A stretch of DNA of 64,000 bases from Nannocystis pusilla (GTDB lineage: Bacteria > Myxococcota_A > Polyangia > Nannocystales > Nannocystaceae): the NCBI RefSeq assembly GCF_020073745.1, contig NZ_JAIRAU010000047.1, positions 285,990 through 349,989 on the forward strand. The letters are read 5' to 3'. Position numbers and translations under genes: made by a program. The notes under the pieces were generated by a model. That model was not told the DNA's origin. It ran no database searches and worked only from the letters and a program-made list of their open reading frames with translations. Of the stretch, positions 2,215-62,501 are shown piece after piece. The stretch's first letter is position 1. Every line of letters begins with the position of its first letter.

Positions 2215-2475
2215 GGAGATTCATCCTCTTTGAAACGTGTTCTACACACCTAGAACGCGTTTCATTTCCAGGCAAGAGGCCTACCTCGCGCGATGCCGAG
2301 CATTCCTGCTCGGACGCCCGTCTCAGCCGCCATCTCGCCCTCTCCGCCGCGGCCGACCGCCGCGATTGTCGCGCGCGAATCCGCCCCGCGCGGGGCCGAC
2401 CAGGCGAACCGGCGTCGGCATGCCCCGGAGGACATGTCCTTCAGGTCACTATCACATGTCCCGAGAGACAGCCCA

Positions 2476-4614
2476 TCACAGGCACGGGTCGCCGGCCGGC
2501 AGCAGCACCCGCAGCGAGCGCGGCGCCATCGCCACCTCCGCGCCCGGCCTCACCTCGAGCGGCTCGCCCGTCAGCGCGTCCACGTACGAGCCTGGCGCGA
2601 AGGACATGTCCTCGAGCGCGATCGCCCCCGCCTGCCCCGCGCGCCACGCCAGCACCAGCGCGCGCTGCCCCTCCGGCGTCGCCCGCTCGAACGCGTACGC
2701 CTCGCCCTCGGCCACCAGCGCCCGCCGTTCGCCGCGCAGCAGCGCCGGCGAGCAGCGGCGCAGCTGCCCGAGCCGGCGCGTCGTCGCCAGCAACCTCGCT
2801 TGCGGCTCCATCAACGCGTCGAGCGCCGGCATCACCCGCCGGCAGTCGGGGTCGTTGCCGCCGGCCAGCCCGACCTCGTCGCCGTAGTAGATCACCGGCA
2901 GCCCCGGCAGCGTCAGCACCAGCCCGAGCGCCAGCGCCTGGCGCTCGTACGGCTCCGCCGCGACCGGCTGCGGCTCCGGGCTGGCCCATGGGTCAGGTGC
3001 CGTCCCGCCGGCGGCCTCCGACAAAAACCGCGTCGTGTCATGGTTGCCGATCATCCGCGCCAGCGTCCCGCCGCTGCCGGCCGTCTTCGCCTCGACCGCG
3101 AGCAGCGACGTCTCGACCGCCTCGAACCCCGCCGACTCGTGAGCCACCGCGTCGCGCAGCGCCCACATCAGCGGGAAGTCGAACACGCTGTCGAGCCCTT
3201 CCGGACCCAGGTAGTAGCGGATCACCTCGATCCCGCCCGCCCCCGGCCCCGTGAACACCTCGCCGACGAAGAAGCTCGCCTCGCGCGGCGCCAGCCGCTC
3301 GCGCACCTCCGCCGCGATCCGGCGCGTCGCCGCCCGCGGCATCATCGGCACCGCGTCGACCCGCATCCCGTCGACGTCGAATTCTTCCATCCACCACACC
3401 GCGTCCTCGTAGGCCCAGCGCAGCGCCTCCGGCCGCTCGAGCCGCAGGTCGGGCAGGTACGGCGTGAACCAGCACGTCTGGATGTAGCGCCCCCAGTCGC
3501 AGCTCCCGAGCCCGCACACACATGTCGGATCGGACCTGTTCCACAGGTCATCCGCCGCGTGCGCCACGTAGCGCTCGTTGGCCTCGTACAAGTGGTTGGG
3601 CACCAGGTCGAGCAGCACCCGGATCCCGCGTGCGTGCGCCGCCGCCACCAGCGAACGCAGCGCCGCCTCGCCGCCGATCCGCGGATCGACCGCGCGCGAC
3701 TCGAGCGGCCAGTAGCCGTGATAGCCCTCGTAGAGGTGCCCGTCGCCGCGGCCCTCGCGGGCCTCGGTCGGGTTCACGTACACCGGCGACAGCCACAGCG
3801 CCGTCGCCCCGAGGGCCGCGATCGACTCGAGCTCCGCCTCGATCCCGTCGAGCGTCCCGCCCGCGCGCCCGCCCGGGCTCGCCGGCGGCGCCAGCGTCGC
3901 CCCGCCCGGCCCGCGGAAGCGATCGATCATCACCTGCACGAGCACGCCCTCCTGCGGCCGGGCCGCCGCCGGCTCGACCCACGCGACCGCCCGCGCCCGC
4001 GCCTCGCGACCGGCGCGATCGAGCGCCACCAGCTCGAGCGAGTGCTTGCCGCGAGGCAGCCCCGCGCGCTCGATCGTGATCGACCCGCTCGCCGGATCGA
4101 TCACCGCCGGCACCACCGTCCCGTCGCTCGCGCGGCCCTCCGCGCGCTGCAGCGGCGAGCCGTCGGCCCCCGCCAGCAGCCGCGCCGACGCCGACCACGT
4201 CCCGGCCGGCGTCGCCTCGACCGCGTCGACCACCAGCTCCGGCTGCGCACAATCGGCGATCCGCAGCAGCGACACCTCGAGGTCGTCCTGCTCGCGCCAG
4301 AACGTCGTTAGCGGGTTGTGCTCGTCGACGCGATCGACCCCGTCCTCGACGATCAGGTAGCCGTATTCGCCGGGCGGCAGCTCGAGCCGCGCCACCTGCC
4401 ACTGCGGGTCCTCGGAGCTGGTCCGCAGCGGCACCCCGGGCACGTACCACGCGTTCCACGAGCCCACGATCTCGAGCGACGCCCCGGTCCGCTGCGGCTG
4501 AGCCCACACCGTCACCGAGCAATCGCGCCGCGGCGGCGCCGCGTCCTCGCAAGCGGCGAGCCCGACCGCGATCGCCGCGGCCATCACTCGGACCTGCCGA
4601 CCTCCCCCGCGCAT
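2476..4614 (-). CDS. GH13 alpha-amylase family glycoside hydrolase (lipoprotein signal)
   Basis: 712 aa. N-terminal signal/lipobox 'AAIAVGLAAC'. GH13 catalytic motifs 'DGMRVDAVPMM' and 'GNHDTTRF', plus a 'YHGYW' motif. Confidence 0.85.
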   Translation of the reverse strand: MRGGGRQVRVMAAAIAVGLAACEDAAPPRRDCSVTVWAQPQRTGASLEIVGSWNAWYVPGVPLRTSSEDPQWQVARLELPPGEYGYLIVEDGVDRVDEHNPLTTFWREQDDLEVSLLRIADCAQPELVVDAVEATPAGTWSASARLLAGADGSPLQRAEGRASDGTVVPAVIDPASGSITIERAGLPRGKHSLELVALDRAGREARARAVAWVEPAAARPQEGVLVQVMIDRFRGPGGATLAPPASPGGRAGGTLDGIEAELESIAALGATALWLSPVYVNPTEAREGRGDGHLYEGYHGYWPLESRAVDPRIGGEAALRSLVAAAHARGIRVLLDLVPNHLYEANERYVAHAADDLWNRSDPTCVCGLGSCDWGRYIQTCWFTPYLPDLRLERPEALRWAYEDAVWWMEEFDVDGMRVDAVPMMPRAATRRIAAEVRERLAPREASFFVGEVFTGPGAGGIEVIRYYLGPEGLDSVFDFPLMWALRDAVAHESAGFEAVETSLLAVEAKTAGSGGTLARMIGNHDTTRFLSEAAGGTAPDPWASPEPQPVAAEPYERQALALGLVLTLPGLPVIYYGDEVGLAGGNDPDCRRVMPALDALMEPQARLLATTRRLGQLRRCSPALLRGERRALVAEGEAYAFERATPEGQRALVLAWRAGQAGAIALEDMSFAPGSYVDALTGEPLEVRPGAEVAMAPRSLRVLLPAGDPCL

Positions 4615-4710
4615 CGGCCTCAGCGTATCACGCCGGGCTCTGCCGCCGGCCGCCGCGTGCAGCCCCGTGCGCGTCTGCCTGGTGGTGCTACGGGTTTCAC
4701 GGAGCCACCC

Positions 4711-5019
4711 ATGCAGTCACAACAGATGATCCAGGCCCTCGCGCAGATCACCTCGGACTTCCGCCGCGGCGACCTCGACGCCGCCTATCAGGGCTATCGC
4801 GACCTGTTCAGCAGCCCCGCCTTCAACCAGGGCAACGCCGACGATCGGCGACATGCCCTGCGGCAACTCGTCTACACCCAGGGCGCCCCGACCCAGTTCA
4901 CCCGGACCATGCGGGTCGCCCACGACGCCGCGCTCGGGCCGATCCAGGCCCTCATCGCCGAGCAGGACGACCCGGCCGACCGCGAGCTGCTGCGCGTCTG
5001 CAAGACTCGCCTGACGTAG
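4711..5019 (+). CDS. hypothetical small protein
   Basis: About 102 aa ORF starting at ATG 4711 (MQSQQMIQALAQ...). No recognisable motif. It sits in the gap between the two divergent amylase-locus genes. Confidence 0.35.
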   Translation: MQSQQMIQALAQITSDFRRGDLDAAYQGYRDLFSSPAFNQGNADDRRHALRQLVYTQGAPTQFTRTMRVAHDAALGPIQALIAEQDDPADRELLRVCKTRLT

Positions 5020-5076
5020 CCCGCGATCCACGCTCGACAACCGTCGTCGCTTCGGAGTACCACTTGCGACGACGCC

Positions 5077-8713: not shown

Positions 8714-9785
<1,072 letters not shown>

Positions 9786-9787
<2 letters not shown>

Positions 9788-9868
9788 GCATGTCCTCGAG
9801 AGCCTGTCGATACGCGCGTGTCCGTCCGGGCATGTCCCCGCGAACAGGCTCCTTCGCACATGTCCTCT
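9786..9868. repeat. six-unit phased palindromic array (14-bp period: ...gagCATGtcc / agCCTGtcg / gcgCGTGtcc / gggCATGtcc / gaaCAGGctc / gcaCATGtcc)
   Basis: CATG/CCTG/CGTG/CAGG cores fall at 9789, 9803, 9817, 9831, 9845 and 9859, exactly 14 bp apart. The array spans the malK stop and the MalE-F start. Confidence 0.85.
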
Positions 9869-12027
9869 GCCTCATCTTCGCCCTGCTCGCCGCCCTCGCC
9901 CCCGCCCGCGCGCGGGCCGACGACCTGCGGCTGTGGCACGCCTACCGCGACGCCGAGGCCGCCGCCCTGGTCGAGGTCGTCGAGCGCTTCAGCGCGGCCA
10001 CCGGCCACCGCGTCGAGCTGCTGGCCGTCGCCCACGAGAGCTTCGCCAGCAAGCTGGTGGCGACCATCCCGCGCGGCCAGGGGCCCGACGTCTTCATCGA
10101 CTCGCACGAGCGCCTCGGCGACTACCGCCAGCGCGCCCTCGTCGGCCCGGCGACCGCGGCGCTCGACGACCCCGCCGTCTACTCCGCGCAGTCGCTGGCC
10201 GCGGTCACCCGGGACGGCGTCGTCTGGGGCGTGCCGCTGAGCGCCAAGTCGGTCGCCCTGTTCGTCAACACCGGTCTCGTCGGACATGTCCCGAAGACCC
10301 TGGAGGAGATCGCCGCGCTGTCGCTGCCCGCCGGCGTCTACCCGCTCGCCTACGAGGCCCAGAGCGCCTACGGTCACATGCCGCTGCTTGCGGCCTTCGG
10401 CGGGCGCATGCTCGCCGAGGACGCCTCCTTCGGGTTCGTCGGACCGGCCGCCGAGCGCTCGCTGGCGTTCGCGCGCGAGCTCGCCGAGCGCGGCGCCGTC
10501 CCGCGCGACGCCGACGGTGCGCTGGTCGCCGACCTGTTCCGCAGCGGTCGGGCCGCGTTCGCGATCAGCGGTCCGTGGCTGGTCGGCGACCTCGCGCAGG
10601 TCCGCTTCGCCTGGCGCGTCATCCCGCTGCCCGTCGTCGCCGAGACCGGCCTGCCGATGCGCCCGCCGCTGACCGTCGAGGCCGCCATGCTGTCGCCGCA
10701 GGGCGCCGCCAAGCCGGCCGCGCTGGCCCTGGCCCGCGCTCTCGGCGGCGCCGACGCGGCCGAGCTGCGCCAGCGCCAGGCCGGCACCCTGTCCGTGAGG
10801 ACAGACGTACCTGTCCCCGAGGACAACCCCGTCCTCGCCGGCTTCCGCGCCCAGGCCGAGCTCGCCGAGCCGATGTCGGCCGACCCGGCGATGCGCTCGA
10901 CCTGGGAGCCGGCCTTCCGCGCGATCCGCAAGGTCCTGCGCGGCCAGGCCGACCCCGCCGAGGCCCTCGCCGAGGCCGCGCACCGCTTCGCCGACGTGCG
11001 CCGCCCCCCGCCGGCCGCCGCCTCGCCGACCCCCGCGCTGTTGCTGCTCGGCCTCGGCCTCCTGCTCGTCGCGTTCCACCTCGTCCGCCGCGCCCGCGAC
11101 CCCGACGCGCGCCAGGCATTGCGCCGCTCGCTGCCCGCCTACCGCTATGTCGCCCACAGCGTCGTCGTCGTCGGCCTGCTGGTGTTCGTCCCGCTGATCG
11201 TCGGCGCCGCCACCTCGCTGTTCGCCGGCCGCCCCGGCGAGGGCTACTACGTCGGCCTCGCCAACTTCGTCGAGATCCTCACCGCCCGCGGCGGCCCCCT
11301 GCTCGCCACCGGCTCGTTCTGGTTCGTCCTCCTCGTCACCTTCCTGTGGACGGCCGTCAACGTCGTCCTCCACCTCGGCATCGGCCTCGCGCTCGGCCTC
11401 GTGCTGTCGCGCCCGACCCTGCGCCTGCGCGCGCTCTACCGCGTGCTGCTGATCATCCCCTGGGCCGTCCCCAGCTACGTCACCGCCCTGGCGTGGAAGG
11501 GCATGTTCCACCAGCAGTACGGCGCCGTCACCGGCCTGATCCACGCCGTCAACGACCTGTTCGGCACCAGCGTCGAGCCGATCGCCTGGTTCTCGCGCTT
11601 CGCCACCGCCTTCGCCGCCAACGTCGCCACCAACGTGTGGCTCGGCTTCCCCTTCATGATGGTCGTCACCCTCGGCGCGCTCACGGCCGTGCCCGCCGAC
11701 GTGCTCGAGGCCGCCGAGGTCGACGGCGCCTCGCGCTGGCAACGCCTCACCCGCGTCACCCTGCCGATGATCCGCCCCGCCCTCGCCCCGGCCGTCACCC
11801 TCGGCGCGATCTGGACCTTCAACATGTTCAACGTCGTGTTCCTCGTCTCGGGCGGCGACCCCGACGGCGCGACCGACATCCTCGTCAGCGAGGCCTACCG
11901 CTGGGCCTTCACCCGCGAGGCCCAGTACGGCTACGCCGCCGCCTACGCCGTCCTGATCTTCCTGCTCCTGCTCGTCACCACCCGCCTGCCGGCCTGGCTG
12001 GCCCGCCGCTCGGAGGCCGCGCGATGA
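9832..12027 (+). CDS. fused maltose/maltodextrin-binding protein (MalE-like) and ABC permease (MalF-like)
   Basis: Single stop-free frame. Signal peptide 'MSPRTGSFAHVLCLIFALLAALAPARARA'. The MalE-like solute-binding domain is followed, without a stop, by a permease with the EAA-type motif 'EAAEVDGASRWQRLTRVTLPMIRPAL'. An alternative start at ATG 9784 overlaps the malK stop. The N-terminus is encoded by a 6-unit palindromic array. Confidence 0.7.
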   Translation: MSPRTGSFAHVLCLIFALLAALAPARARADDLRLWHAYRDAEAAALVEVVERFSAATGHRVELLAVAHESFASKLVATIPRGQGPDVFIDSHERLGDYRQRALVGPATAALDDPAVYSAQSLAAVTRDGVVWGVPLSAKSVALFVNTGLVGHVPKTLEEIAALSLPAGVYPLAYEAQSAYGHMPLLAAFGGRMLAEDASFGFVGPAAERSLAFARELAERGAVPRDADGALVADLFRSGRAAFAISGPWLVGDLAQVRFAWRVIPLPVVAETGLPMRPPLTVEAAMLSPQGAAKPAALALARALGGADAAELRQRQAGTLSVRTDVPVPEDNPVLAGFRAQAELAEPMSADPAMRSTWEPAFRAIRKVLRGQADPAEALAEAAHRFADVRRPPPAAASPTPALLLLGLGLLLVAFHLVRRARDPDARQALRRSLPAYRYVAHSVVVVGLLVFVPLIVGAATSLFAGRPGEGYYVGLANFVEILTARGGPLLATGSFWFVLLVTFLWTAVNVVLHLGIGLALGLVLSRPTLRLRALYRVLLIIPWAVPSYVTALAWKGMFHQQYGAVTGLIHAVNDLFGTSVEPIAWFSRFATAFAANVATNVWLGFPFMMVVTLGALTAVPADVLEAAEVDGASRWQRLTRVTLPMIRPALAPAVTLGAIWTFNMFNVVFLVSGGDPDGATDILVSEAYRWAFTREAQYGYAAAYAVLIFLLLLVTTRLPAWLARRSEAAR

Positions 12028-12074
12028 CCCACCGCCGACGCCCGTCTCGTCGCCCCCCGCCGACGCGTCCCTTC

Positions 12075-12127
12075 GAGCATGCCCCTGCGACCATGTCCTT
12101 CGGGTCATGCCCCTCACGACATGCCCT
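12075..12127. repeat. four-unit phased array of GMCATG(Y)CC units (period 14-15 bp) in the malF-malG intergenic region
   Basis: 'gagcatgcccc tgcga ccatgtcc ttcggg tcatgcccc tcacg acatgccc'. Confidence 0.8.
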
Positions 12128-12163
12128 GACGACCATCCACCCCGCCATCATCGAGGTCGGCCG

Positions 12164-13042
12164 ATGAGCCCGTCCGGCCAGGGCCGCAGGGTCGGCCTCG
12201 TCGAGTCGATCGGCGCCCACCTGCTGCTGATCGTCGCCGTCGCGTTCGCCCTCTACCCTGTCCTTTGGGTCATCTCGCTCGCCTTCTCCGGCGCCGTCGA
12301 GCCGACCGCGCGGGTGATCCCGGTCCCGATCGAGCCGACCCTCGAGCACCTGCGCGGCGTCGCCTTCTCGACCCTCGAGGTGCCCGGCGGCCCCGACCGG
12401 TGGTTGTTCGGCCTGCAGCTCGCCAACTCGATCGTCATCAGCCTGGCGACCGCGCTGGTCGGCGTCGTCATCGCCGTGCCGACCGCCTACGCTCTGGCCC
12501 GCTTCGAGTTCGTCGGCAAGGACTCGGGCGTGCGCGCGCTGCTGGCCACGCAGATGTTCCCTGCGGTCGCCAGCGCGATCCCCCTCTACATCATCCTCGA
12601 CGGCCTCGGTTTGCTCGGCACCCGCTCGGGCCTGGTCCTCTGCTACGCCACCACCGCCGTCCCGTTCGCCATCTTCCAGCTGCGCGGCGCCTTCGAGACC
12701 ATCCCGCGCGACCTCGAGGAGGCCGCCATGGTCGACGGCGCGACCCGCTTCGAGGCCTTCCGCAAGGTCGTCCTGCCCGCCGCGCGCCCCGCCATCGCCG
12801 TCACCGCGCTGTTCGCCTTCATGAGCGCCTACAACGAGTTCGTGCTGGCCCACACCATGCTCGGCCGCGAGGAGATGTACACCGTCCCGGTGGTGCTGCA
12901 GCGCTACATCTCCGAGTTCAGCGCCGACTGGCCCAAGTTCGCCGCCGGCTCGCTGATCGTCTCGATCCCGGTGATGGTCCTCTTCTACATCGCCCAGCGC
13001 CACCTCATCGCCGGCCTCACCGCTGGCGGCGTCAAGGGCTGA
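12164..13042 (+). CDS. malG: ABC transporter permease MalG-like
   Basis: 292 aa. An ABC transmembrane type-1 permease: multiple TM segments and an EAA-type motif ('EEAAMVDGATRFEAFRKVVLPAARPA'). Confidence 0.85.
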   Translation: MSPSGQGRRVGLVESIGAHLLLIVAVAFALYPVLWVISLAFSGAVEPTARVIPVPIEPTLEHLRGVAFSTLEVPGGPDRWLFGLQLANSIVISLATALVGVVIAVPTAYALARFEFVGKDSGVRALLATQMFPAVASAIPLYIILDGLGLLGTRSGLVLCYATTAVPFAIFQLRGAFETIPRDLEEAAMVDGATRFEAFRKVVLPAARPAIAVTALFAFMSAYNEFVLAHTMLGREEMYTVPVVLQRYISEFSADWPKFAAGSLIVSIPVMVLFYIAQRHLIAGLTAGGVKG

Positions 13043-13256
13043 CGGGCGAGCGAGCGCAATGATGGCACTGTGATGTTCGCCCGGAGGCCGCGGCCCCCAC
13101 GAAACACAATGCACATACCGGGCTTCGGCCCCACGAAACGCATCACGCTCGTTTTCGCCCCAGCATGCGTTCGGCAAATTTCACACCAGGCCGTGAATCC
13201 AACCCGCGGTCGCCGCATTCCAAGCCTGGAACTCTCAGCCCACCCTGGAGAATCTC

Positions 13257-15344: not shown

Positions 15345-15655
15345 GCGCCTGACGCTCGACGCCAGCGACACGACCCGGCCGGGCCCGCCCGGCCTGAGCG
15401 GGTCGCTGTCGCACACGCAGACCGCACGAAGCGAGCGCCTGTCGATCTTGCAACCTCCTCGCGTCTCCCGACCTGTCGAGCCCGCGACGCGGGATCGACC
15501 GGCTCGATCGCAGCGGATCCAGGGCGTTAAGCGACTCCTTGCCGCGGAGCGCCCCGCGGCGAGTCGACCTCGAGCGACCTCTCGCCGCCGCCGCGCGGAT
15601 GCGACCTGCCCGATGAGCCAGGCCCAAGCTCTGCACCTGTCCCAAAGACCAGCCG

Positions 15656-17944: not shown

Positions 17945-18290
17945 GGACATGCTCTCCAAAACATGTCCTCCAAAACATTATCGTAAGGACATGTCCTCGA
18001 CGGCCTCCTGCTCGCCCCTCCTTCGGCGCCCAGCGCTGCGCCGCCGGGCCCCCACTGCGCGGAGCGCCGCCTCGCTCGCCGCGCCGGGAAGGACTGGTCC
18101 TGCGCACCGACGCCGGCCGTTTGATGTCCACCATCCTCGTCATTCCCCGCCCGGCTCGAGCCACGCTCTCGCCGCTCGTGACGCCCCGCGACGACCTGTC
18201 CCGCCCGGACAGAGCGCCGCTCGCGTCGCTCTCGTGACCCCCGCGGCGCACCTGCTCCCCCGGGTTCGAGTCCCGCTCGCGTCGCCCGTC

Positions 18291-18806: not shown

Positions 18807-18926
18807 AGATCGCGGTCACGCGCCTGCGGCCCTGAATATTCCCCGGGAACCTCGCCGGGGCGGCGCTGTCTGCCGCTCCCGAGCGACGCGCGTGCGGCCG
18901 GTGGCGGCCGACCTGTCCGTCGCGAC

Positions 18927-19487: not shown

Positions 19488-19858
19488 GCCCGCGGCTTCG
19501 AGCATCGCCCCCCGCGCCGTTGCCCGGGTGCTTTGGACATGTCTCACAAGACATGTCCATGAGAACATCTCATTGCCGGCCCAAGGTCCGCGCGGCCGCG
19601 TGCCCCGCAGGTCGCCTCACCTTGACGAGCAGTCTCCTGACGCCTCCGGGCCGCTGCAAGGCCGCCCACGCCGCCAGGTCGGGGGGCCCCGCAACGGGCG
19701 CAGCTTCACGCGACCTCACGCGTGCGCGAAGCGCGGCTCGCCCTTCCGCCCAGGCGCGAGGCGACGCTCGCGCTCGCGCGGCGAGCGGCGGCATTCGCCG
19801 CGACGCTGAATGAGGATCGCCGGCGCGCGTTCTCGCGCCCCGCGCGCGCTCGCGCGCC

Positions 19859-20194: not shown

Positions 20195-20292
20195 GGCGCC
20201 CGGGCCTTGTAGCGAACAACGCCCAGGCCCCGCAAGTCGCCCGTCTGCCGGTTTTTTGGCGGTCCGCGGTCCGGCGAGTAGCGTCTCGCTCC

Positions 20293-49003: not shown

Positions 49004-49250
49004 CCGGCCGCATGTAGCGCGTGGCGCCAGGGCTGTCAAACCGCCGCCAGCCCGGATCCATTCCCCGCCAGCCCCGGATCCTTGTGGATCCTTCTGTTGA
49101 CACGGCAAACGTGGATTGGCTATTGCCTCCCGGCCCTTGGTCGCCTCTGAGCCCACTGCGCGCCTCGGAGGCGCCGACGCGAGTCCCGAGCTCGACGCGC
49201 CCGGCGACGTCCGGGTCGACGCGCCGGCGCGTCCGCTCGACGACATCATG

Positions 49251-49313
49251 ATGCGCACGCCCGACGACCTCATGCGCACGCGCGACGACCTCATGCGCAC
49301 GCGGGTCGTCGCG
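49251..49313 (+). repeat. three tandem 21-bp repeats each starting with ATG (ATGCGCACGCSCGACGACCTC), at the 5' end of the giant gene
   Basis: Direct reading: 'atgcgcacgcccgacgacctc atgcgcacgcgcgacgacctc atgcgcacgcgggtcgtc'. A 15-bp duplication 'gcctgcctgatcggc/gcctgtctgatcgga' follows. Confidence 0.85.
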
Positions 49314-52300
49314 GTCTCGGCCTGCCTGATCGGCGCCTGTCTGATCGGACTTGTCCCTCGGGACAGCCACGCCGCGCGCCCGGTCCGGCAGCTCGGCATG
49401 GTCGCCTCGACCGGCGCGCCGACCTGGCCGGCCCTGCACGCCGCGCCCGGGCTGCGCCCCACCGACCTGGTCGCCGGCCTCGGCGCGCCGCTGCTGCTCG
49501 CCCCGCCGCGCACCACCCCGCGGCGCCTGCCCGGCGGCCAGGCCGAGCCGCCCGCCGGCGAGCCGCCCGCCGGCGAGCCGCCCGCGAGCGAGGCGACGCC
49601 GGTCGAGCCTGTCCCCGAGGACATGCCCGATCAGCCAGGGCCTTCGGCACCTGGCCCCACGGGCAGCCCGTTGACGCGGCCGACCCCGAACCTCGCGCCG
49701 CCGCCGAGCGGCGACGATCTCGAGGCCGGCGACGAGGAGGTCGCGCCGGCGCCGGAGCCGACCAACGACAACGCCCCGCCAGTGACGGTGCTGGTGCCCG
49801 AGCCGGAGAAGCCCGACCCGGCCGACGAGGTCCCGCGCTTCCTCAAGGGCAAGAGCGTCCCGCCGTTCTGGATCGACCGCACCTACACGACGCACCGCAC
49901 GCGCGCGCTGACGCTGCCGCCGCTGTTCTTCGACCGCCGCGGCACCGCGACCCACCCGGAGAAGCTGTTCCACTTCAACCTGTCCTTGACGACAGGTTGG
50001 TACAGCCAGCGCACGGCCAAGCGGCGGTGGTTGTCGCCGGCGATCCTGTTCTTCGGCTCGTTCAGCGAGCGCACCAGCGGCTGGGGCGCGGTCGCGCTGC
50101 TGATGGGCTACAAGCGGGTCGGCGAGCAGTTCAGCTTCGGCCAGTTCCCGTTCGTGTGGCGGTGGGGCAACAAGTCGGTCAAGAACCTGATCGTCGTCCC
50201 CTTCCACTACCACCAGAAGACGCCCGACAGCATGCGCGGCTTCTCGGCGCTGCTGTTCTGGTACGGCCACAAGAACACCACCGACAAGGATCCGCTCAAC
50301 GACCTGCGCTACTTCGTCGGCGCGCCGCTGTTCTACCGCGTGACCCGCGGCCCGAGCACCGTCAACGTCGGCGTCCCGCTCTACGTGGGCGGGCAGAACA
50401 AGGCCCGCGGGGTCAAGTGGCACACGGTGCTGCCGTTCGTGCACTGGCAGTCGAGCGAGTACGGCAACCGCAAGGACCTGTGGACGCTGCTGTACGTGCA
50501 GCGCAGCGACAAGGCCCGCAGCCAGCGCACCTGGGCGGTCCCGCCGCTCCTCACGTTCTCGCGCCAGACCCCGACGCGCAAGCTGTTCTCGGCCACGCCG
50601 CTGGTGTGGCGCGCCGAGAACCGCGACCGCGGCAGCGTCGCCTGGTCGGCGTTCCCGTGGGTCAGCTACCGCGACCCGGAGCAGCGCAACCGGGTGCTGT
50701 TCCCGCTGTTCTGGCAGTTCGGCGACGTCAAGGCCGGCGTCACCAGCAGCGTGTTCGTCCCGCTGCTGTACGCGCGCAAGAGCCCGCAGGACACGCGGGT
50801 CTACACCCTGCTCGGAGGCGGTCGCGCCGGCAAGGACGGCCGCTGGGGCTTCGGCATCACCCCGCTGCTGACGTTCGTGCGCAACGAGCCCGGCGGCAAC
50901 AGCTTCCAGGTCGTCACGCCGCTGTTCGGCCACTCGCACGACCCGAGCGCCTACGACGGCAAGGGCTCGCGCACGCTGTCGGCCGGCGTGCTCGGCTTCT
51001 ACCGCCGCCGCGGCGAGCGCTGGGACGCCGGCCTCGCCCCGCTCGCGTTCGTCGGCCGCGACGGCACCCGCTCGTACCAGACCATCACCCCGCTGTTCTG
51101 GCACCGCCGCGACACCGACCCGGCCAAGCCGAGCGACCTGTGGGTGCTCGGCCCGATCTACGCCAAGAAGGTCAAGTCCGGCGGCCACGGCGGCCTCGCC
51201 CCGCTGGTGTTCGCCGGGCGCGACGACAAGTTCCGCTACGGCATCGTCCCGCCCTTGCTCTTCGGACATGTCCACGACGTCGAGGCCCAGCGCGCGCTGA
51301 CGGTGTCGCCGCTGTTCGCCCGCAGCAAGGGCCCCGACCACCGCACGATCGGGGTGCTCAACCTGTTCTGGGACGTGAAGCGCGCCGGCGACGAGCGCCA
51401 CACCGCGCTGTTCCCCCTCTTCTACCGGCGGCAGAAGGACGGCAAGGCGCTCACCCTGACCCCGCTGGGCGGCGCCTATCGCACGCCGGAGCAGCGGACC
51501 TGGTCGGCCGCGGCGCTCCTGTACGGCTTCCGCGGCTACAAGGATCCGGTCCGCCGCGGCTTCGGCCTGATCCCGCTGGTGTTCTACGACCGGCGCAAGG
51601 TCGAGGGCGGCGTCGCCAGCAACCTCGTCGTCGCGCCGCTGTTCGCCCGCCACCGCGCGCCGAGCGAGGACCTCGACATGTGGTCGCCGCTGGTCTGGCG
51701 CACCGCCACGCGCGGCGAGAAGCCGCGCAAGAACCTCGCGGTCGTCCCGTTCTACTTCCGCCAGCGCCAGCCCGAGGGCATCGACGTCGACGCCGGCCTG
51801 CTGCTGCCGTTCTTCTACAGCCGCGACAAGATCCGGCGCACGCACACGCTCATCGCCGGCCCGGCGTTCCACCGCCTCACCCGCACCTCGCTCCACGCCG
51901 GCGTGGTCCCGGTCTACTGGTGGATGGACTCGGCCGAGAAGCGGCGCCTGATCTCGCTGCCGCTCATCTTCCACCAGGCCGACAAGGCGAAGAACGAGCA
52001 CACCACCATCGCCGTGCCGTTCTGGTTCGACCGTCAGCGGGCCAACGGTCGCCGCTCGTGGGTCGCGTTCCCGTTCGTCGTCGGCGTCAAGGGTCAGTTC
52101 AACTTCACGCGCTTCAGCCTGGCCCCGCCGATCTACTTCGACTTCTTCCGCCTGCACAAGAACTACCGCTTCACCGGCGTGGTCCCGTTCGCGTTCCGCT
52201 ACCAGAAGTGCGGCTTCCGCGAGGAGGACGACGATCGTTGCCGCTACACGGTGTGGGGCTCGTGGCCGTTCTTCCTCTACGGCAAGGACGGCAAGGGCCG

Positions 52301-53243
52301 CACCAGCCACGGCGCGCTGATGCTCTACTACTTCGACAAGGACCCGGGCGGCCGCCGGTTCCTCACCTTGCTGGGCGGCGCCAACGTGCGGCCCGGCGAG
52401 CGCCTCACCTGGTACGCGCTCAACTTCGGCCACACGACCACGCGGCAGTTCAAGACCACCGTCTTCTTCCCGCTGTTCTTCCGCAAGGCCTACCGCACCA
52501 AGGATCGCAGCACCACCGTCGTGCTGCCGCCGCTGTTCGTCGGCGCCCGTCGCGAGGACTACCGGTGGTTCCAGGCCGGGCTGATGGTCTGGAACTTCCG
52601 CCGGCCGCACAAGGTGACCACCGTGGTCGCGCCGCCGCTCTTCTACACCGCGCACAGCTACGCCGAGCGGCGCATGACCTGGCTCTTGCCGCTGTTCCTG
52701 CGCGACAACAACTGGGCCAAGGACACCAGCTTCACCAGCGTCTTCCCGGCCCTGGTGTTCCAGCGCCGCCGCGGCCAGGACAACGACTGGGTCCAGTTCC
52801 CGCTGATCTGGCACATCGAGCGCGGCGAGAACTCGGGCACCTTCGGCGCCTTCTTGTGGTGGGACATCCGCCGCAAGGGCCGCGTCACGCAGGTCGTGCC
52901 GGCCATCTGGGCCCGCCAGCGCGGGCGCGGCCGCGAGACCCAGGTCATCGGCCCCGGCCTCGGCTGGTGGTGGCGCACCGAGCAGACGATCAGCGACGCC
53001 AAGGGCGACGGCATCGGCGTCAAGAAGGGCCTCCACTGGCGCGCCCTGTTCGGTCTCATCGGCGGCGGCAACGACGGCGCGCAGCGCTACTTCTCGCTGT
53101 TCGGCGGCCGGATCCCCCTGCGGCCCAAGGCCGTGTGGGAGCCGCGACGCAAGCGCCTCAAGGCCCAGACCCCCGCGGCGCCCAAGGCCCTGCCCCCGGC
53201 CGCGCCGAAGGCCCCGGTCGAGCCCGCGCAGCCCAAGCCCTGA
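49293..53243 (+). CDS. giant (about 1316 aa) aromatic-rich tandem-repeat lipoprotein of unknown function
   Basis: Signal/lipobox 'MRTRVVAVSAC' (duplicated 'ACLIG'). A Pro/Glu-rich linker is followed by about 1100 aa of degenerate 25-40 aa repeats, each beginning 'PLF/PLL...' and rich in W/F/Y/R. The frame also opens at ATG 49116, 49251 and 49272. Confidence 0.6.
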   Translation: MRTRVVAVSACLIGACLIGLVPRDSHAARPVRQLGMVASTGAPTWPALHAAPGLRPTDLVAGLGAPLLLAPPRTTPRRLPGGQAEPPAGEPPAGEPPASEATPVEPVPEDMPDQPGPSAPGPTGSPLTRPTPNLAPPPSGDDLEAGDEEVAPAPEPTNDNAPPVTVLVPEPEKPDPADEVPRFLKGKSVPPFWIDRTYTTHRTRALTLPPLFFDRRGTATHPEKLFHFNLSLTTGWYSQRTAKRRWLSPAILFFGSFSERTSGWGAVALLMGYKRVGEQFSFGQFPFVWRWGNKSVKNLIVVPFHYHQKTPDSMRGFSALLFWYGHKNTTDKDPLNDLRYFVGAPLFYRVTRGPSTVNVGVPLYVGGQNKARGVKWHTVLPFVHWQSSEYGNRKDLWTLLYVQRSDKARSQRTWAVPPLLTFSRQTPTRKLFSATPLVWRAENRDRGSVAWSAFPWVSYRDPEQRNRVLFPLFWQFGDVKAGVTSSVFVPLLYARKSPQDTRVYTLLGGGRAGKDGRWGFGITPLLTFVRNEPGGNSFQVVTPLFGHSHDPSAYDGKGSRTLSAGVLGFYRRRGERWDAGLAPLAFVGRDGTRSYQTITPLFWHRRDTDPAKPSDLWVLGPIYAKKVKSGGHGGLAPLVFAGRDDKFRYGIVPPLLFGHVHDVEAQRALTVSPLFARSKGPDHRTIGVLNLFWDVKRAGDERHTALFPLFYRRQKDGKALTLTPLGGAYRTPEQRTWSAAALLYGFRGYKDPVRRGFGLIPLVFYDRRKVEGGVASNLVVAPLFARHRAPSEDLDMWSPLVWRTATRGEKPRKNLAVVPFYFRQRQPEGIDVDAGLLLPFFYSRDKIRRTHTLIAGPAFHRLTRTSLHAGVVPVYWWMDSAEKRRLISLPLIFHQADKAKNEHTTIAVPFWFDRQRANGRRSWVAFPFVVGVKGQFNFTRFSLAPPIYFDFFRLHKNYRFTGVVPFAFRYQKCGFREEDDDRCRYTVWGSWPFFLYGKDGKGRTSHGALMLYYFDKDPGGRRFLTLLGGANVRPGERLTWYALNFGHTTTRQFKTTVFFPLFFRKAYRTKDRSTTVVLPPLFVGARREDYRWFQAGLMVWNFRRPHKVTTVVAPPLFYTAHSYAERRMTWLLPLFLRDNNWAKDTSFTSVFPALVFQRRRGQDNDWVQFPLIWHIERGENSGTFGAFLWWDIRRKGRVTQVVPAIWARQRGRGRETQVIGPGLGWWWRTEQTISDAKGDGIGVKKGLHWRALFGLIGGGNDGAQRYFSLFGGRIPLRPKAVWEPRRKRLKAQTPAAPKALPPAAPKAPVEPAQPKP

Positions 53244-53405: not shown

Positions 53406-55142
<1,737 letters not shown>

Positions 55143-55340
55143 GGTCCTCGGGTCTAAGATTCGCGGGCCGCCCACGCACGCATGGGCGAACCAGCGGAGT
55201 CGACGTAGCGTTTCGGATCGCGAGCGATCGATCAAGCGTGCAAGTCCGCGACGCGCGTCGTCGTGCCAACGAATTTCACCCGCGAAAACACCGACGCGGG
55301 CCGCCCCGGCCGGAGCGACCCGCGCGTCATGCCACATCAC

Positions 55341-57086
55341 TCACATCGGCTGGATGCCGCAATCGTCGACCTCGTTCGGAATGCAACCCTCGCAATCCCA
55401 CCGGAAGTTGTCGAGCAGCGCGACCGTGGTCAGGTATTGATCGGACATGTCGGCCAAGAAGAAGCCGATCGTGATCTCGGCACCCGGCTGCACACCGCCC
55501 TTGGCGGTGAACCAGTCGGTGCAGGCGTGCTGCTCGAAGCCCGTGCCCTGCAGCTGCGGCTCGGCGAAGGTGTAGCCGGGGCCGTCGTAGTACGGGTCGA
55601 GCGCCGTGATCGTCAGCGGCAGGCCGCTGGCCGGATTGTTCGGGTCGGGGATGAAGGTGACGTTGCCGCTGTACGGGTCGACCGGGGGCATCGCGTTCGG
55701 GTTGTCGGGCGTCGGATCGACCTGATAGGCGATCAGCAGGTCGTTGTACGAAGAACCGACCCACGTCGGCCACTCCGCCGAGCAGAACACGAAGTCGAAG
55801 GTGTAGCCGAACGTGCCCGCCGGCACCTTCGTATTGAAGGTGAAGTAGATGCGGTCGTTGGCGTTGCCGTTGGTCATCGCCCACTGGGCCTGGAGCGTGT
55901 CCGAGCAGTCGCGGTCGCCGTTCGGCACGCCGTTGTCGCAGTTCTTGAAGGGCGTGCCGCCGGCGCCGTTGTTGCTGCCGTTCTGGTTGTTGAACGGCGC
56001 CGGCAGGACGCCGCCGTCGGGGTTGAAGTTGTCGTCGTGCGTCTGCGAATTCGCCGGCTCGACGACGACGCCCTGGCCGTTCGGCGGGGTGATCGTGCCC
56101 GTCGACAGCATCAGGAAGGCCGCGCCCTCGCGCGGGCTGTAGAGCAGCTGCGGCGGCGTATTCGCGTCCATGTCGTGGTCGTAGGTGTACGTGCCGAAGC
56201 CCTTCGCCACCTGCCACGAATTGTCGACCGCCTGCGAGAACTGGAAGTTGCTCGTCATGATCGAGTCGGCCGGGGTGCTGTTGCAGATGCCGATCGCCTT
56301 GAGCGCGTTGTTCTTGTCGGCCTTGTTGCTGATCACGTCGGGCGCGTCGTCGCACACGACATAGTTGGCCGGGGCCTGACAGCTGGCCGGGAAGTAGGTG
56401 GTGCAATTGTTGAGGCAGAAGTCGCCGGGGCCGCCGTCGACCGTGTTGCCGTCGTCGCACTCCTCGCCGGCCTCCTTGATGCCGTTGCCGCAATCGGCCG
56501 GCGAGAACGTGCAGTCGGGCTCGCAGCCGTCGCCGGGGACCACGTTGCCGTCGTCACACTGCTCGGGGCGCTCGACCGTGCCGTTGCCGCAGTCCTGCAG
56601 CGGCGTGGCCGTCTGGCAGTCGGCGCTGCACTCGTCGCCGTCCTCGGTGTTGCCGTCGTCACACGCCTCGCCGGCCTCGACGTTGTTGTTGCCGCAAACG
56701 GCCGTGATCGTGCACGTCGGCTCACAGCCGTCGCCCGCGACGTCGTTGCCGTCGTCGCACTCCTCGCTGCCCTCCTGAACGCCGTTCCCGCAGTCCGGCA
56801 CGCCCTCCGTCACGCCCTCCGTCTCGGCCGCCGTGGCCGTCCCCTCCGTCGTGCCCTGCGTGGCGCTGTCGCTCACGCCCGTGGTCGGCGTGCCCGTCGT
56901 CGGCTGCGAGGTCTCGGTCGCCGAGTCGCCGCCCGCGGTCGCGTCGACCGTGGCTTGTGAGGCGGTGTCGCCCTCGGTCTGACCGTCGGACGCGCTCGAA
57001 AGTTTGCCGCCGTCGTCGCCGCACGCGGCGAGCGCCGAGGCGAGAAAGCCGGCCGTAAGGATTCGAAAAGTCGGTCGAGTCATCAT
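55341..57086 (-). CDS. myxobacterial Cys-rich repeat lipoprotein, paralog 2
   Basis: About 581 aa from ATG 57086 (MMTRPTFRILTAGFLASALAACG). Same architecture as paralog 1. Confidence 0.7.
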   Translation of the reverse strand: MMTRPTFRILTAGFLASALAACGDDGGKLSSASDGQTEGDTASQATVDATAGGDSATETSQPTTGTPTTGVSDSATQGTTEGTATAAETEGVTEGVPDCGNGVQEGSEECDDGNDVAGDGCEPTCTITAVCGNNNVEAGEACDDGNTEDGDECSADCQTATPLQDCGNGTVERPEQCDDGNVVPGDGCEPDCTFSPADCGNGIKEAGEECDDGNTVDGGPGDFCLNNCTTYFPASCQAPANYVVCDDAPDVISNKADKNNALKAIGICNSTPADSIMTSNFQFSQAVDNSWQVAKGFGTYTYDHDMDANTPPQLLYSPREGAAFLMLSTGTITPPNGQGVVVEPANSQTHDDNFNPDGGVLPAPFNNQNGSNNGAGGTPFKNCDNGVPNGDRDCSDTLQAQWAMTNGNANDRIYFTFNTKVPAGTFGYTFDFVFCSAEWPTWVGSSYNDLLIAYQVDPTPDNPNAMPPVDPYSGNVTFIPDPNNPASGLPLTITALDPYYDGPGYTFAEPQLQGTGFEQHACTDWFTAKGGVQPGAEITIGFFLADMSDQYLTTVALLDNFRWDCEGCIPNEVDDCGIQPM

Positions 57087-57453
57087 GGTCGTGTCCTGTA
57101 TGCGAAGCATGTGGGCCGTCCTCGAATGCATGGCGGTCCCGCCTTGATTCCTCATGATTCATGAGTGATCAAGGCCGGTGCCTCGCGCAGCGGTCCGCAG
57201 GCCTCATTGGTGAATCTGCAGCCTCGACCGCGCGAGACCGTCGTTCCGGCGCAGGAAGCACGCGATTCGTCGTCGCTGCCGATGGTGATCCACCGCAAGC
57301 TGTCGAGCTCGCTGGAAGACCACGGGTAGACGTCACATTTGTTCGACTCGCGCGATTCGACGCAACATCACACCATCGATTCCGCCCGCTCGAGACGCGA
57401 CGAGGCGCGCACGTCGCCGTGCGCGCCGCGTCACTCGTACCTCGAGCCGTCGA

Positions 57454-59187
<1,734 letters not shown>

Positions 59188-59503
59188 GGCGAAGGTATCC
59201 TTGAACGTGGTGGCGCGCCCTTCCAGGACGGGCACGCCGCTGCCGCAGCGGCGCGCGCGCGGAATGACGTGAATCAACCGGGCCACGATTTCGGACTTCG
59301 CCGCAGGATCAAGCGTCCACCGACCTGGTGCCTTCAAACCATGCCTGACGACGATCGTGGCAAATCTGCGCCCGCAGAGGCGCTGCCGCCGCGCGCCGCT
59401 CGTTCGCTACTCCAGCGACCGCGAACCTTCGATCCGGACAACAGAGGCGCAGACTCCGCCGCAGCTGCAGAGACTGCCATGAATCAACTTCATCGCCTGT
59501 CCT

Positions 59504-60031
59504 TCAGAACCTGTCCGAAGGGACCTGTCCACTTGTTGTCGTCACGCGCCCCCGCTGGCGAACGGCGGTCAGCCGCGCCGGACCGATCCCGCGCACACGC
59601 CTCAAGTCATCGACCGTGGAGTACGGTCTCCCTTCGATGATTCGCCGCGCGAGCTCGGGACCGATCCCGGGCATACTCTCGAGCTCGCTGGCCGACGCTC
59701 GATTGAGGTCGACAGGGACCGCGAGCGCCTCGAGATCGTCTCCTCGCATTCGCCCCCAGCCGAGCTCGCCAGGTCGCGGAGATCCGCCTGCGCACAATGA
59801 TGCACGCACGATCGCGTCGCCGTGGTTCAGCACCCCGCTCGCCGTGGCGTCGCCGCACACGCTCGCGACGTCGCGCGGCGCCTCGTCGTCGCAGCGCAGC
59901 ACGCCGTCGACCTCGACGGCGAATTCGCAGGCGACCCGCACCAGCAGCTCCGGCGCCGCCGGCCTCAGCCATGCCGCCAGCGCCACCGCGAGCGCGGCGA
60001 TCAGCGCGAGCCCTGCCCCGACGCGCATCAC
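59504..60031 (-). CDS. comEA: ComEA-like helix-hairpin-helix DNA-binding protein
   Basis: 175 aa. N-terminal TM 'GAGLALIAALAVALAAWL'. C-terminal tandem HhH 'DLNRASASELESMPGIGPELARRIIEGRPYSTVDDLRRVRGIGPARL'. The last 10 codons are encoded by palindromic units. Confidence 0.7.
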   Translation of the reverse strand: MMRVGAGLALIAALAVALAAWLRPAAPELLVRVACEFAVEVDGVLRCDDEAPRDVASVCGDATASGVLNHGDAIVRASLCAGGSPRPGELGWGRMRGDDLEALAVPVDLNRASASELESMPGIGPELARRIIEGRPYSTVDDLRRVRGIGPARLTAVRQRGRVTTTSGQVPSDRF

Positions 60032-61338: not shown

Positions 61339-61402
61339 GGCTTTCGATCGGGACGCGCGGTCCCGTGCGCGCATGCTGTACCTCAATTGCGGTGCAAGGG
61401 CA

Positions 61403-61708
61403 CTAGTCTTTTCGCGACTTGAACAGCGGCAGCTGAAACAGCGCCTCGGGCGCCCCGCCGTCACGCCCGCTGCGGCGGCGCTGCGCCTCTTCCTCGAGGA
61501 TCGTCTTGATCGCCCCGCGACAGCTGCCGCACCCGGTGCCCGCCTCGCAGGCGTCGCCAACATCTTCGACGCTGCGGGCCCCCTGGCGCACGCAGGCGAC
61601 CACCTCGTGCTCGAAGACCGTGTTGCACTGGCACAGCAGCACCCGCACCCCTCCGGGATACCGCAGCGACCGCCGCCCGTCGACGCCCCGCCGCGAGCGC
61701 GGGCGCAC
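61403..61708 (-). CDS. BFD-like [2Fe-2S]-binding domain protein
   Basis: '[47 protein letters not shown]' is a Bfd-type C-x-C...C-x2-C domain. The true start is likely internal, giving a product of about 75 aa. Confidence 0.5.
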
Positions 61709-61766
61709 GCGCGCACCGCCGCGCGCGCCGCAAGCTGACTATTCGGACATGTCTCTCAAGACATGG

Positions 61767-62501
61767 CTATTCGGCCAGCGCGGCGAGGTAGTCGGCGACG
61801 GCCCGCGCGAGCCCGACGAACAGCGCGTGGCTGATGAGCGCGTGGCCGATCGAGGCCTCGTCGAGGTGCGGCAGGCGGCTGAACAGCGGCAGGTTGTCGA
61901 GGTCGAGGTCGTGACCGGCGTTGACGCCGAGCCCGAGCGAGTGCGCCAGCTCGGCCGCGGCGGCGAACTGCGCCAGCGAGGCCGCGCCCGCGCCGGCCGC
62001 GAAGGCCCGCGCGTACGGCTCGGTGTACAGCTCGATGCGCTGCGCGCCGACGTCGGCGGCCCAGCGCACCGCGGCGGGGTCGGCCTCGATGAACAGCGAG
62101 ACCCGCACCCCGAGCTTGTGCAGCCGGGCCACGACCGCCCCGAGCTCGGCGCGCGAGGTGTCGGGCGGCCACCCGGCCTGGCTCGTGATCTCGCCCGGCC
62201 GCACCGGCACGAGGGTGCACTGGTGCGGCCGCAGCTCCTCGACCATCGCCAGCAGGTCGGGCCGCGGGTCGCCCTCGATGTTGAACTCGACGCGATCGCG
62301 CAGCGGCGCCAGCTCGGCCGCGATCGCCCGCGCGTCGGCGGCCCGGATGTGGCGCTCGTCGGCCCGCGGGTGCACGGTGATGCCCGGCGCGCCGGCCGCG
62401 ACGATCGTCCGCACCGCCTCGATCACGCTCGGGACGTCGCCGCCGCGGGCGTTGCGGAGGGTGGCGACCTTGTTGACGTTGACGCTGAGGCGGGCGGCCA
62501 T
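61767..62501 (-). CDS. pdxJ: pyridoxine 5'-phosphate synthase PdxJ
   Basis: About 244 aa from ATG 62501 (MAARLSVNVNKVATLRNARGGDVPSVIEA...). PdxJ TIM-barrel signature ('GITVHPRADERHI', 'NIEGDP'). Confidence 0.85.
   Translation of the reverse strand: MAARLSVNVNKVATLRNARGGDVPSVIEAVRTIVAAGAPGITVHPRADERHIRAADARAIAAELAPLRDRVEFNIEGDPRPDLLAMVEELRPHQCTLVPVRPGEITSQAGWPPDTSRAELGAVVARLHKLGVRVSLFIEADPAAVRWAADVGAQRIELYTEPYARAFAAGAGAASLAQFAAAAELAHSLGLGVNAGHDLDLDNLPLFSRLPHLDEASIGHALISHALFVGLARAVADYLAALAE

Follow-up and report, generated by a model that had tools for sequence, protein, structure and literature searches.

A palindromic decamer iterated in a 14-bp register near stop codons of Nannocystis genomes

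What is a 10-bp palindrome, repeated over and over at a fixed spacing, doing in the genome of Nannocystis pusilla? The question is raised by a stretch of 64,000 nucleotides (contig NZ_JAIRAU010000047.1 of assembly GCF_020073745.1, positions 285,990 to 349,989; hereafter the window, 72% G+C), in which a preliminary description had noticed a massive over-representation of the palindrome GGACATGTCC. The over-representation was confirmed: exact GGACATGTCC occupies 9 sites in the window, compared to a dinucleotide-shuffle mean of 0.11 and to 0.07 in third-order Markov simulations, and GGACNNGTCC occupies 16 sites compared to 2.6 expected. Units with one, two and three mismatches to GGACATGTCC numbered 18, 54 and 268, with 2.2, 30 and 228 expected, respectively. 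The excess over background amounts to about 50-90 units if degenerate ones are included; the earlier figure of "about 70" units thus holds for this broad class, but not for the exact or near-exact units to which it had been applied. The density of near-perfect units, 0.4-0.9 per kb, is of the same order as that of DNA uptake sequences, as had been proposed. In 649 kb of gene interiors we counted 28 copies of GGACATGTCC, compared to 0-9 for each of 29 composition-matched palindromes. An artefact of chance or composition was ruled out by the shuffles, the Markov simulations and these 29 palindromes.

The palindrome is reiterated at a strict 14-base register in Nannocystis genomes. Among the 81 window units with at most two mismatches, 15 pairs were spaced by 14 bp, 6 by 28 bp and 4 by 42 bp, and none by 13 or 15 bp, which confirmed the phasing reported before; 100 third-order Markov simulations gave a mean of 0.02 and a maximum of 1 pair at 14 bp. 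A similar picture was obtained from the pattern-match loci, i.e. 809 kb fetched around perfect doubles (two perfect units 14 bp apart), with 248 pairs at 14 bp (103 of them being the pairs used to select these loci), 66 at 28 bp, 59 at 42 bp, 20 at 56 bp and 13 at 84 bp, versus a single pair at 13 bp and a single one at 15 bp. The register was kept across degenerate middle units. It was also kept in coding sequence, where 20 of the 28 exact units (12 of the 28 belonging to the perfect doubles on which the loci were chosen) had a neighbour at 14 bp and none had one at 10-13 or 15-18 bp.

The example arrays of the preliminary description at 30824-30881 (five units; 2, 3, 3, 1 and 4 mismatches), 49608-49650 (four units; 3, 1, 4 and 3) and 22662/22676/22690 (0, 2 and 1) were recovered in register. 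At 9789-9862 the register of the six units was retained (9786-9865), but two of them are weak, with four mismatches each, and the array given as four units at 12078-12121 has in fact five (12061-12126). The positions 27189/27203/27231, 46687/46701/46715 and 59495/59509/59524 are in register as well, with a weak third of four positions in the first case (0, 2, 5 and 0), a weak array in the second (3, 2 and 5) and a weak first position in the third (4, 2 and 1). The four units proposed at 15605-15647 were not upheld: two weak units are followed, out of register, by a unit offset by 17 nt.

Within the unit, C4, A5, T6 and G7 were nearly invariant, G1, G2, C9 and C10 were strong, and A3 and T8 were softer. 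An array is built of 2-7 such 10-bp units, each followed by a 4-bp A/T-rich spacer (38-52% A+T per position, compared to 28% for the genome), and a recurrent pattern consists of two strong units and then a weak one, with a 42-bp repeat. The AT, CT/AG and CG centre variants occurred at about the frequencies expected for half-sites varying independently, and our arithmetic on the centre counts led to the same result for CCTG and CAGG centres. Outside the unit, the 40-nt flanks of 456 array ends carried at most 0.22 bits per position, and no conserved flank or tag beside the units (e.g. GTAG) was found in these ends; a larger mobile element around the arrays was therefore ruled out. Consecutive spacers were mostly unrelated to one another and identical in only 10 of 159 cases, which rules out recent slippage as the sole origin of the arrays, and the similarity of neighbouring spacers was slightly raised (1.42 identities of 4, compared to 1.07 by chance). 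Single exact units and odd-numbered arrays were also enriched. We noticed that GGACATGTCC matches the textbook p53 half-site consensus, RRRCWWGYYY, and treated this as a coincidence, the context being wholly bacterial.

To see how far the system extends, we searched 185,579 species, each represented by one genome (596 Gb in total), for two perfect units 14 bp apart. As many as 100 of the 103 perfect doubles found came from Nannocystis species and metagenome-assembled genomes (MAGs), Nannocystaceae bacterium BC1.173 and Myxococcales bacterium HK-STAS-MYXO-15. The remaining three, in a gammaproteobacterial MAG, Diplocloster agilis and a Terriglobales MAG, were each an isolated match; by our own estimate, about one match to 20 specified bases is expected by chance in 596 Gb. 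Neither enrichment nor phasing was seen in loci of distant Nannocystaceae/Myxococcales MAGs that encode the same ClpC-like protein as the window at 60-63% identity, and a viral collection yielded a single contig, which carried one double and showed no enrichment. GGACATGTCC is a highly iterated palindrome restricted to Nannocystis and its nearest relatives, with arrays that by extrapolation number thousands per genome. The preliminary description had not recognised a known element family, and we likewise found no description of the motif in the literature searched. The repeat system is real, strongly non-random and genus-specific, and apparently undescribed.

The position of the arrays relative to genes was analysed mainly in 8-kb blocks picked for a perfect double, with the selecting arrays masked where possible. 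Genes were called with our own caller based on G+C content at third codon positions (GC3), which differed from the database calls of locus L001 (from Nannocystis sp. SCPEA4) only in one low-G+C gene and some start codons. Arrays with at least two good units numbered 106 in 20.8 kb of convergent intergenic DNA, 64 in 76 kb of co-directional and 17 in 41.7 kb of divergent intergenic DNA, and 41 in 691 kb of coding sequence. After masking of the selecting arrays, the unit density was 3.8 per kb in convergent, 0.76-0.88 in tandem and 0.65 in divergent regions and 0.15 in coding sequence, and the share of intergenic regions with a phased pair was 54% for convergent, 18-22% for tandem and 12% for divergent ones. 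The earlier assignment of arrays to both promoter-side and terminator-side regions was correct as to their intergenic location, but it missed this strong bias towards stop codons. The arrays lie mainly 0-50 bp past the stop codon, in the convergent set mostly under about 30 nt from it, and in co-directional regions they adjoin the stop of the upstream gene, often 0-15 nt away and sometimes overlapping it. The presence of units inside open reading frames (ORFs), also reported before, was confirmed: 20 of the 27 near-perfect window units are inside called genes, and with 0.37 units per kb the gene interiors of the window are unusually rich. The possibility that the arrays are promoter or enhancer sites for downstream genes, suggested by the ClpC array upstream of a response-regulator gene, was dropped because arrays are rarest in divergent (promoter-only) regions.

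The arrays are best read as 3'-end elements similar to the repetitive extragenic palindromic (REP) sequences and bacterial interspersed mosaic elements (BIMEs) or to the highly iterated palindromes (HIP) of other bacteria. As to what acts on them, our leading explanation, which we put forward tentatively, is that a protein may bind them in a register-dependent manner at the 3' boundaries of transcription units. A dimeric sequence-specific protein would read the units as duplex DNA and bind neighbouring units cooperatively; the 14-bp register would rotate each unit by 120 degrees relative to the previous one, and 42 bp would make four helical turns. Such a reader could mark or insulate the ends of transcription units as a roadblock, as a terminator or by handling supercoiling, and a transcript spanning two good units might in addition fold into a 10-12 bp hairpin that can stabilise 3' ends. 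A bolder form of the proposal is that a dedicated protein polymerises on 14-bp-phased GGACATGTCC and so defines 3' boundaries, as a genome-wide, sequence-coded termination or insulation system strong enough to shape synonymous codons and to add unit-encoded peptides to proteins. This form seems to us conceivable but rather doubtful.

Several observations weigh against a protein reader. Arrays are also present at junctions within the rib, fab and mal operons, which speaks against a strong roadblock terminator. The excess of 42-bp distances comes partly from 42-bp tandem duplications, of which locus L080 has a clear example, and from the in-frame constraint within genes, and the positional statistics lean on loci selected for doubles and on our own gene caller. 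The predicted folds of arrays beat shuffled controls (z = -5.7, -3.9, -6.5 and -3.1). Finally, deviations from the consensus were compensated in the neighbouring unit 82 times, compared to 53 +/- 9 in shuffles, which fits selection for a hairpin.

The last two points lead to the alternative that RNA is sufficient: neighbouring units would form a hairpin that serves as a bidirectional terminator devoid of a U-tract or as a barrier to 3'-exonucleases, with no dedicated reader. REP sequences play such a 3'-end role in the RNA of Escherichia coli operons. Two good neighbouring units inevitably pair in a single strand, with a predicted 10-12 bp G+C-rich hairpin and a 4-nt loop, and the arrays are found directly past stop codons and between convergent genes. 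Convergent intergenic regions with units had a mean fold z of -3.7, compared to -1.1 for those without units and -0.3 for divergent regions. However, the fold energy did not differ between the sense and antisense strand (26 vs 20, p = 0.39). Of the single arrays, the one behind queA gave a fold, made by G-U pairing, on the sense strand of queA and not on the other; the malF-malG array has no fold on the sense strand (z = +0.3). Wobble-compatible (G-U) changes tallied from the position matrix showed a weak bias to the sense strand (66, compared to 46 mirror-image changes). Compensated deviations make up about 14% of all deviations, and their slight excess was matched by deviations shared directly between neighbours, which were about as frequent (76, compared to 53 +/- 9), and neighbouring centre variants were direct rather than complementary (23 vs 8, or 13 vs 8 without one repetitive locus pair). 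The covariation signals of a hairpin are thus weak and ambiguous. The locus pair left out of this test (L052 2900-4050 and L093 6880-7750) contains a Gly/Pro-rich repetitive ORF on the minus strand with GGACCTGTCC doubles every 84-96 bp, which inflate the direct CT-CT centre pairs.

The arrays do not have the make-up of an intrinsic (rho-independent) terminator, a G+C-rich hairpin with a T-run: no T-run follows them. In 20 kb of the window (9001-29000) we found one hairpin-plus-T-run site, compared to 2.6 in shuffles, and none at an array; this lack of canonical terminators counts in favour of the RNA hairpin. No sigma-70-like promoters were found in the same 20 kb, and no match at the Rfam 15 gathering score in the 64-kb window on either strand. 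On the other hand, structure leaves unexplained why one 10-mer is used and conserved genome-wide, and the spacing is so rigid that loops of 3, 5 or 6 nt are practically absent (248 pairs, compared to 1 and 1). The enrichment of lone exact units and of odd-numbered arrays is not accounted for either, and arrays conserved within essential ORFs would end transcription early. We therefore regard an explanation by RNA alone as possible but on the doubtful side; the shared word, the rigid spacing, the direct deviations and the weak strand bias together favour a reader of double-stranded DNA.

We compared the window with the syntenic loci of Nannocystis sp. SCPEA4, N. exedens and N. punicea, in which arrays were found at the same places. 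In a convergent spacer with a mean identity of 49% the unit core is the sole invariant island, and in a well-conserved spacer both units are invariant across the species compared. In intergenic arrays, the number and detailed sequence of the units turn over between species; at the queA junction, for example, all four species have arrays, the sequences of which have turned over. The preliminary description had suggested a search for presence/absence polymorphism at orthologous loci, and such a case was found between malF and malG; otherwise the arrays occupy orthologous positions in the four species. A separate observation concerns the intergenic region 18800-18980 upstream of the ExbD-like gene: with 84% identity over four species it is much better conserved than the other spacers, it holds an invariant TGAATATTCC..GGGAACCTC block, and a regulatory function is probable.

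The most informative array is located within the gene of the ClpC-like AAA+ protein (20293-22821), a protein that shares 95% identity with its homologue in Nannocystis sp. SCPEA4 and 86-88% with the homologues in N. exedens, N. punicea and strain ILAH1. The array (22659-22696) overlies the codons of DMSLGARPLRHVL, in the conserved sensor-2 region. In Nannocystis and in a MAG with 74% identity the LGARPLRHV codons read GGG GCA CGT CCC TTG CGA CAT GTC, whereas motif-free relatives have GGC GCC CGC CCG CTC CGC CAC GTG. Since the GC3 of the gene is 0.94, this run of A/T-ending codons is exceptional; in N. punicea it has been retained although further synonymous changes occurred. The first unit of the array arose within the genus through a Leu-Ala to Met-Ser exchange (CTG GCC to ATG TCC), exactly 14 bp upstream of two pre-existing units. 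These comparisons indicate that the array was made by substitution, in register, and then kept. Other in-gene arrays look like insertions; the array loop of UppP, for instance, is longer than in the E. coli protein by 14 residues (42 nt, three units, in frame).

The in-gene units also bear on the alternative that the motif accumulates by a drive, as a signal for DNA uptake (similar to the DNA uptake sequences, DUS, or uptake signal sequences, USS), for recombination or repair, or linked to methylation (the core has CATG), and is tolerated where constraint is lowest, in 3' intergenic DNA and protein linkers. The motif is lineage-specific and of a density similar to that of such signals, its in-gene units are accommodated by codon choice and in weakly constrained loops and linkers, and the order of densities (convergent > tandem > divergent > coding) mirrors constraint. 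HIP1 offers a parallel: it, too, is in large excess and is conserved at sites inside ORFs and between them, and no function at the level of genes was found for it (PMC5861425). A drive acting on a 10-mer, however, does not predict a rigid 14-bp register, and exact coding units are mostly phased even though the selecting doubles contribute to this count. We consider such a drive unlikely.

The malF-malG junction differs between species. In N. exedens the two genes are joined by a 4-bp ATGA stop/start overlap, whereas in the window, SCPEA4 and N. punicea they are 136-310 bp apart, most of which is array, and a junction sequence of about 15 bp, GAGGyCGsSCGATGA, is duplicated so that it stands on both sides of the intergenic region. 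The polymorphism could have come about either by an insertion accompanied by a duplication or by an exact deletion of the DNA between the repeats. Close to it, SCPEA4 has a lower-G+C AIPR (abortive-infection-type) gene inserted between malG and the S9 peptidase gene (L001 1307-3082); the window, N. exedens and N. punicea lack it. Locus L028 (3100-3660) contains three tandem copies of about 150 bp, each of which includes the final ~60 nt of a gene with the stop codon and, in addition, a 2-unit array, and arrays may mark or promote local tandem duplication.

Such rearrangements raise the question of whether the register is a mutational footprint: fold-back or template switching during replication would copy a neighbouring unit over a minimal 4-nt loop, and slippage would amplify 14- or 42-bp blocks. 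The compensated deviations and the likeness of neighbouring spacers beyond chance would follow from this, as would the tandem duplications in L080 and L028, the latter ending in arrays, the clustered CTG GCC to ATG TCC change that made a unit beside an existing one, and the duplicated junction flanking the malF-malG insertion. It would explain neither the common genome-wide consensus and its restriction to one clade nor the units that stand as islands in diverged spacers, and the share of compensated deviations is small. Replication errors seem to us a quite improbable source of the pattern.

The preliminary description compared the arrays to miniature mobile palindromes of the REP type or the Rickettsia palindromic element (RPE) type. 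We considered as a further alternative a classical mobile REP/REPIN family or miniature inverted-repeat transposable elements (MITEs), which would be spread by a REP-associated tyrosine transposase (RAYT). The extragenic bias to 3' ends, the presence/absence polymorphism with flanking direct repeats at malF-malG and the in-frame insertion in UppP are in line with this idea. It is contradicted by the unit itself, merely 10 bp long with no conserved flanks or tag, by the unrelated spacers, by the in-gene array that arose through substitutions and by the stable orthologous positions. The 127 genes flanking perfect doubles hit 125 Pfam families, each at most three times, so that no gene family recurs; no Y1 (RAYT) transposase was found among them, and a linked transposase or DNA-binding protein family next to the best arrays was rejected as a candidate. 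The mobile-element comparison was not sustained, and we consider it very unlikely.

The sequence, the register, the positional bias and the lineage restriction all hold, and as judged from these comparisons the motif is kept by selection. Should a protein indeed read the arrays, most transcription-unit ends would be marked by one DNA word in a fixed register, and we know of no earlier bacterial case of such end-marking. It would provide a handle on how very G+C-rich bacteria without canonical terminators end or insulate transcription. The motif sharpens the puzzle posed by HIP1, a short palindrome hyper-abundant in one lineage, by adding a 14-bp register and a position at stop codons. It is also a signature by which Nannocystis DNA can be spotted in metagenomes, and it may serve as an engineering part for these natural-product producers.

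The arrays and units found in the genes and intergenic regions of the window are collected in Table 1. No unusual set of genes surrounds them. Those around them are common genes for housekeeping and transport: a maltodextrin cluster, a CLC channel, HflX, UppP and QueA, a riboflavin operon with CoaBC, and a plsX-fab cluster, aspartokinase and PdxJ. In the maltodextrin cluster, the gene at 9832-12027 encodes a periplasmic solute-binding domain (SBP_bac_1/8) and an ABC permease domain (BPD_transp_1) fused in one 731-residue protein, a MalE-MalF fusion also conserved in other Nannocystis genomes. Both this gene (9832) and coaBC (39092, minus strand) probably start at the ATG of a unit (ATG TCC, Met-Ser). 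In-frame ATG codons of this origin can mislead the choice of a start codon, and gene callers should be used with caution here, as the units also inflate ORFs. The HU/IHF-family domain encoded at 35299-35868 (minus strand) is part of a 189-residue protein, much longer than an ordinary HU. Three tandem paralogous DUF4215 genes occupy 53406-59067, two of which have GGACATGTCG exactly 106 nt before the stop codon (53508 and 55443); the same distance in both paralogues indicates that the unit was copied along with the gene.

Table 1. Arrays and single units of the palindrome in the window; figures in brackets are mismatches to GGACATGTCC at each unit position
Position	Feature	Context
2416-2439	2-unit array (3, 0)	36 nt 3' of the stop of the alpha-amylase gene 2476-4584(-)
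2602-2611	lone exact unit	within the alpha-amylase gene, 130 nt from its stop
9786-9865	six in-register positions (2, 4, 3, 1, 4, 1), two weak	overlaps the TGA stop of a MalK-like gene (8714-9787) and the ATG start (9832) of the MalE-MalF fusion
10282-10291	lone exact unit	within the MalE-MalF gene
12061-12126	5-unit array (3, 3, 2, 2, 2)	fills the MalF-MalG intergenic region; region absent in N. exedens
11968-12230	malF-malG junction compared	with L002 1900-2022, L001 36-286 and L003 174-610
17945-17996	4-position array (2, 2, 5, 0)	begins at the first base past the stop of the CLC channel gene (15812-17944)
18909-18932	2-unit array (2, 1)	42 nt upstream of the ExbD-like gene; core invariant in four species
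19535-19572	3-unit array (1, 1, 3)	convergent intergenic, 47 nt past the ExbD stop; sole conserved island in a diverged spacer
20690-20727	3-unit array (1, 2, 2)	low-complexity N-terminal linker of the ClpC-like gene; position common to all four species
20832-20855	2-unit array (1, 2)	low-complexity N-terminal linker of the ClpC-like gene
22659-22696	3-unit array (0, 2, 1)	over DMSLGARPLRHVL codons of the ClpC-like gene, rare A/T-ending codons, 144 nt before the stop
27186-27237	4-position array (0, 2, 5, 0)	encodes the UppP/BacA loop GHVPQHMP..GHVP
28198-28235	3-unit array (2, 2, 3)	convergent intergenic, 10 nt from the stop of queA (28246-29277, -)
30822-30887	5 in-register positions (2, 3, 3, 1, 4)	between two co-directional genes
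33221-33244 and 33327-33350	two 2-unit arrays	within a called gene (GC3-based caller)
35214-35237 and 35276-35299	two 2-unit arrays	convergent intergenic, abut the stop of the HU-like gene (35299-35868, -)
39073-39096	2-unit array (1, 0)	between the ribBA stop (39109) and the coaBC start; coaBC ATG apparently inside a unit
40288-40325	3-unit array (3, 3, 1)	ribE/ribBA junction
42358-42367	single unit (1)	gene junction upstream of ribD
46684-46707	weak 2-unit array (3, 2)	plsX/fabD junction; next in-register position has 5 mismatches
49347-49356	single unit GGACTTGTCC (1)	near the 5' end of the large gene 49137-53243
49605-49656	4 in-register positions (3, 1, 4, 3)	within gene 49137-53243
51264-51273	lone exact unit	within gene 49137-53243
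59493-59530	3 in-register positions (4, 2, 1)	long intergenic region; all CCTG centres (direct, not complementary)
61745-61768	2-unit array (1, 3)	abuts the stop of pdxJ (61767-62501, -)

Among known systems, HIP1 (GCGATCGC, cyanobacteria) resembles the Nannocystis motif as a short, perfect, lineage-specific palindrome, over-represented tens- to hundreds-fold, that occurs in and between genes and is conserved between genomes in a way that implies selection. PMC5861425 reports HIP1 to be over-represented by a factor of 15-300 and conserved both inside ORFs and in the DNA between them, and its abstract gives no evidence of a gene-level role, be it as an RNA motif or in regulating expression; the function of HIP1 is still debated (PMC5861425 and PMC4390886). 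Two features of the HIP type were found for GGACATGTCC: over-representation within and between genes, and conservation of sites beyond what codon usage predicts (the four-species orthology, the rare codons and the spacer island). The Nannocystis motif differs in its length of 10 bp, its 14-bp phased arrays and its concentration at stop codons; for HIP1, the abstract of PMC5861425 does not mention short-range arrays, a text search of PMC4390886 gave no mention of tandem arrays, hairpins or terminators, and a bias to stop codons was not found in this literature either.

The likeness to REP/BIME elements lies in abundant short palindromic repeats that cluster in arrays. The arrays follow stop codons, separate convergent genes or the genes of an operon, are seldom found in divergent promoter regions, and vary in copy number from species to species while their sites stay fixed. 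REPs have a role in RNA, where they protect 3' ends, and a role in DNA, where they bind gyrase and IHF. However, a REP is a 20-40-nt imperfect hairpin, whereas the Nannocystis unit is a perfect 10-bp palindrome that does not fold on itself; no unit has a stem-loop of its own, and hairpins form solely between units. The Nannocystis arrays also differ in their rigid 14-bp register, in the lack of a conserved tag or linker at the units and of a RAYT near the best copies (among the 127 flanking genes), and in their frequent occurrence within genes, in one case by codon choice. DUS of Neisseria and USS of Pasteurellaceae share the density of about one per kb, the lineage-specific 'dialects' and the accommodation in coding regions, and pairs of them can form hairpins downstream of genes, but they are not palindromes and do not build multi-unit phased arrays. 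RPEs, too, are found in frame within protein-coding genes, in loops or linkers; they are mobile elements of 100-150 bp with conserved sequence, whereas in Nannocystis conservation is limited to the 10-bp units and one array was made by substitutions.

A parallel to the register is offered by the operator arrays of cooperative ribbon-helix-helix proteins (MetJ metboxes, omega heptads and ParR/parC iterons), in which short units are likewise arranged in exact register. In arrays of this type, short and often palindromic units are repeated 2-10 times, and degenerate units are tolerated beside strong ones. A replicon has few operators or centromeres of this kind, and they lie on the promoter side; the arrays of Nannocystis are more numerous by orders of magnitude, by extrapolation thousands per genome, and lie on the terminator side.

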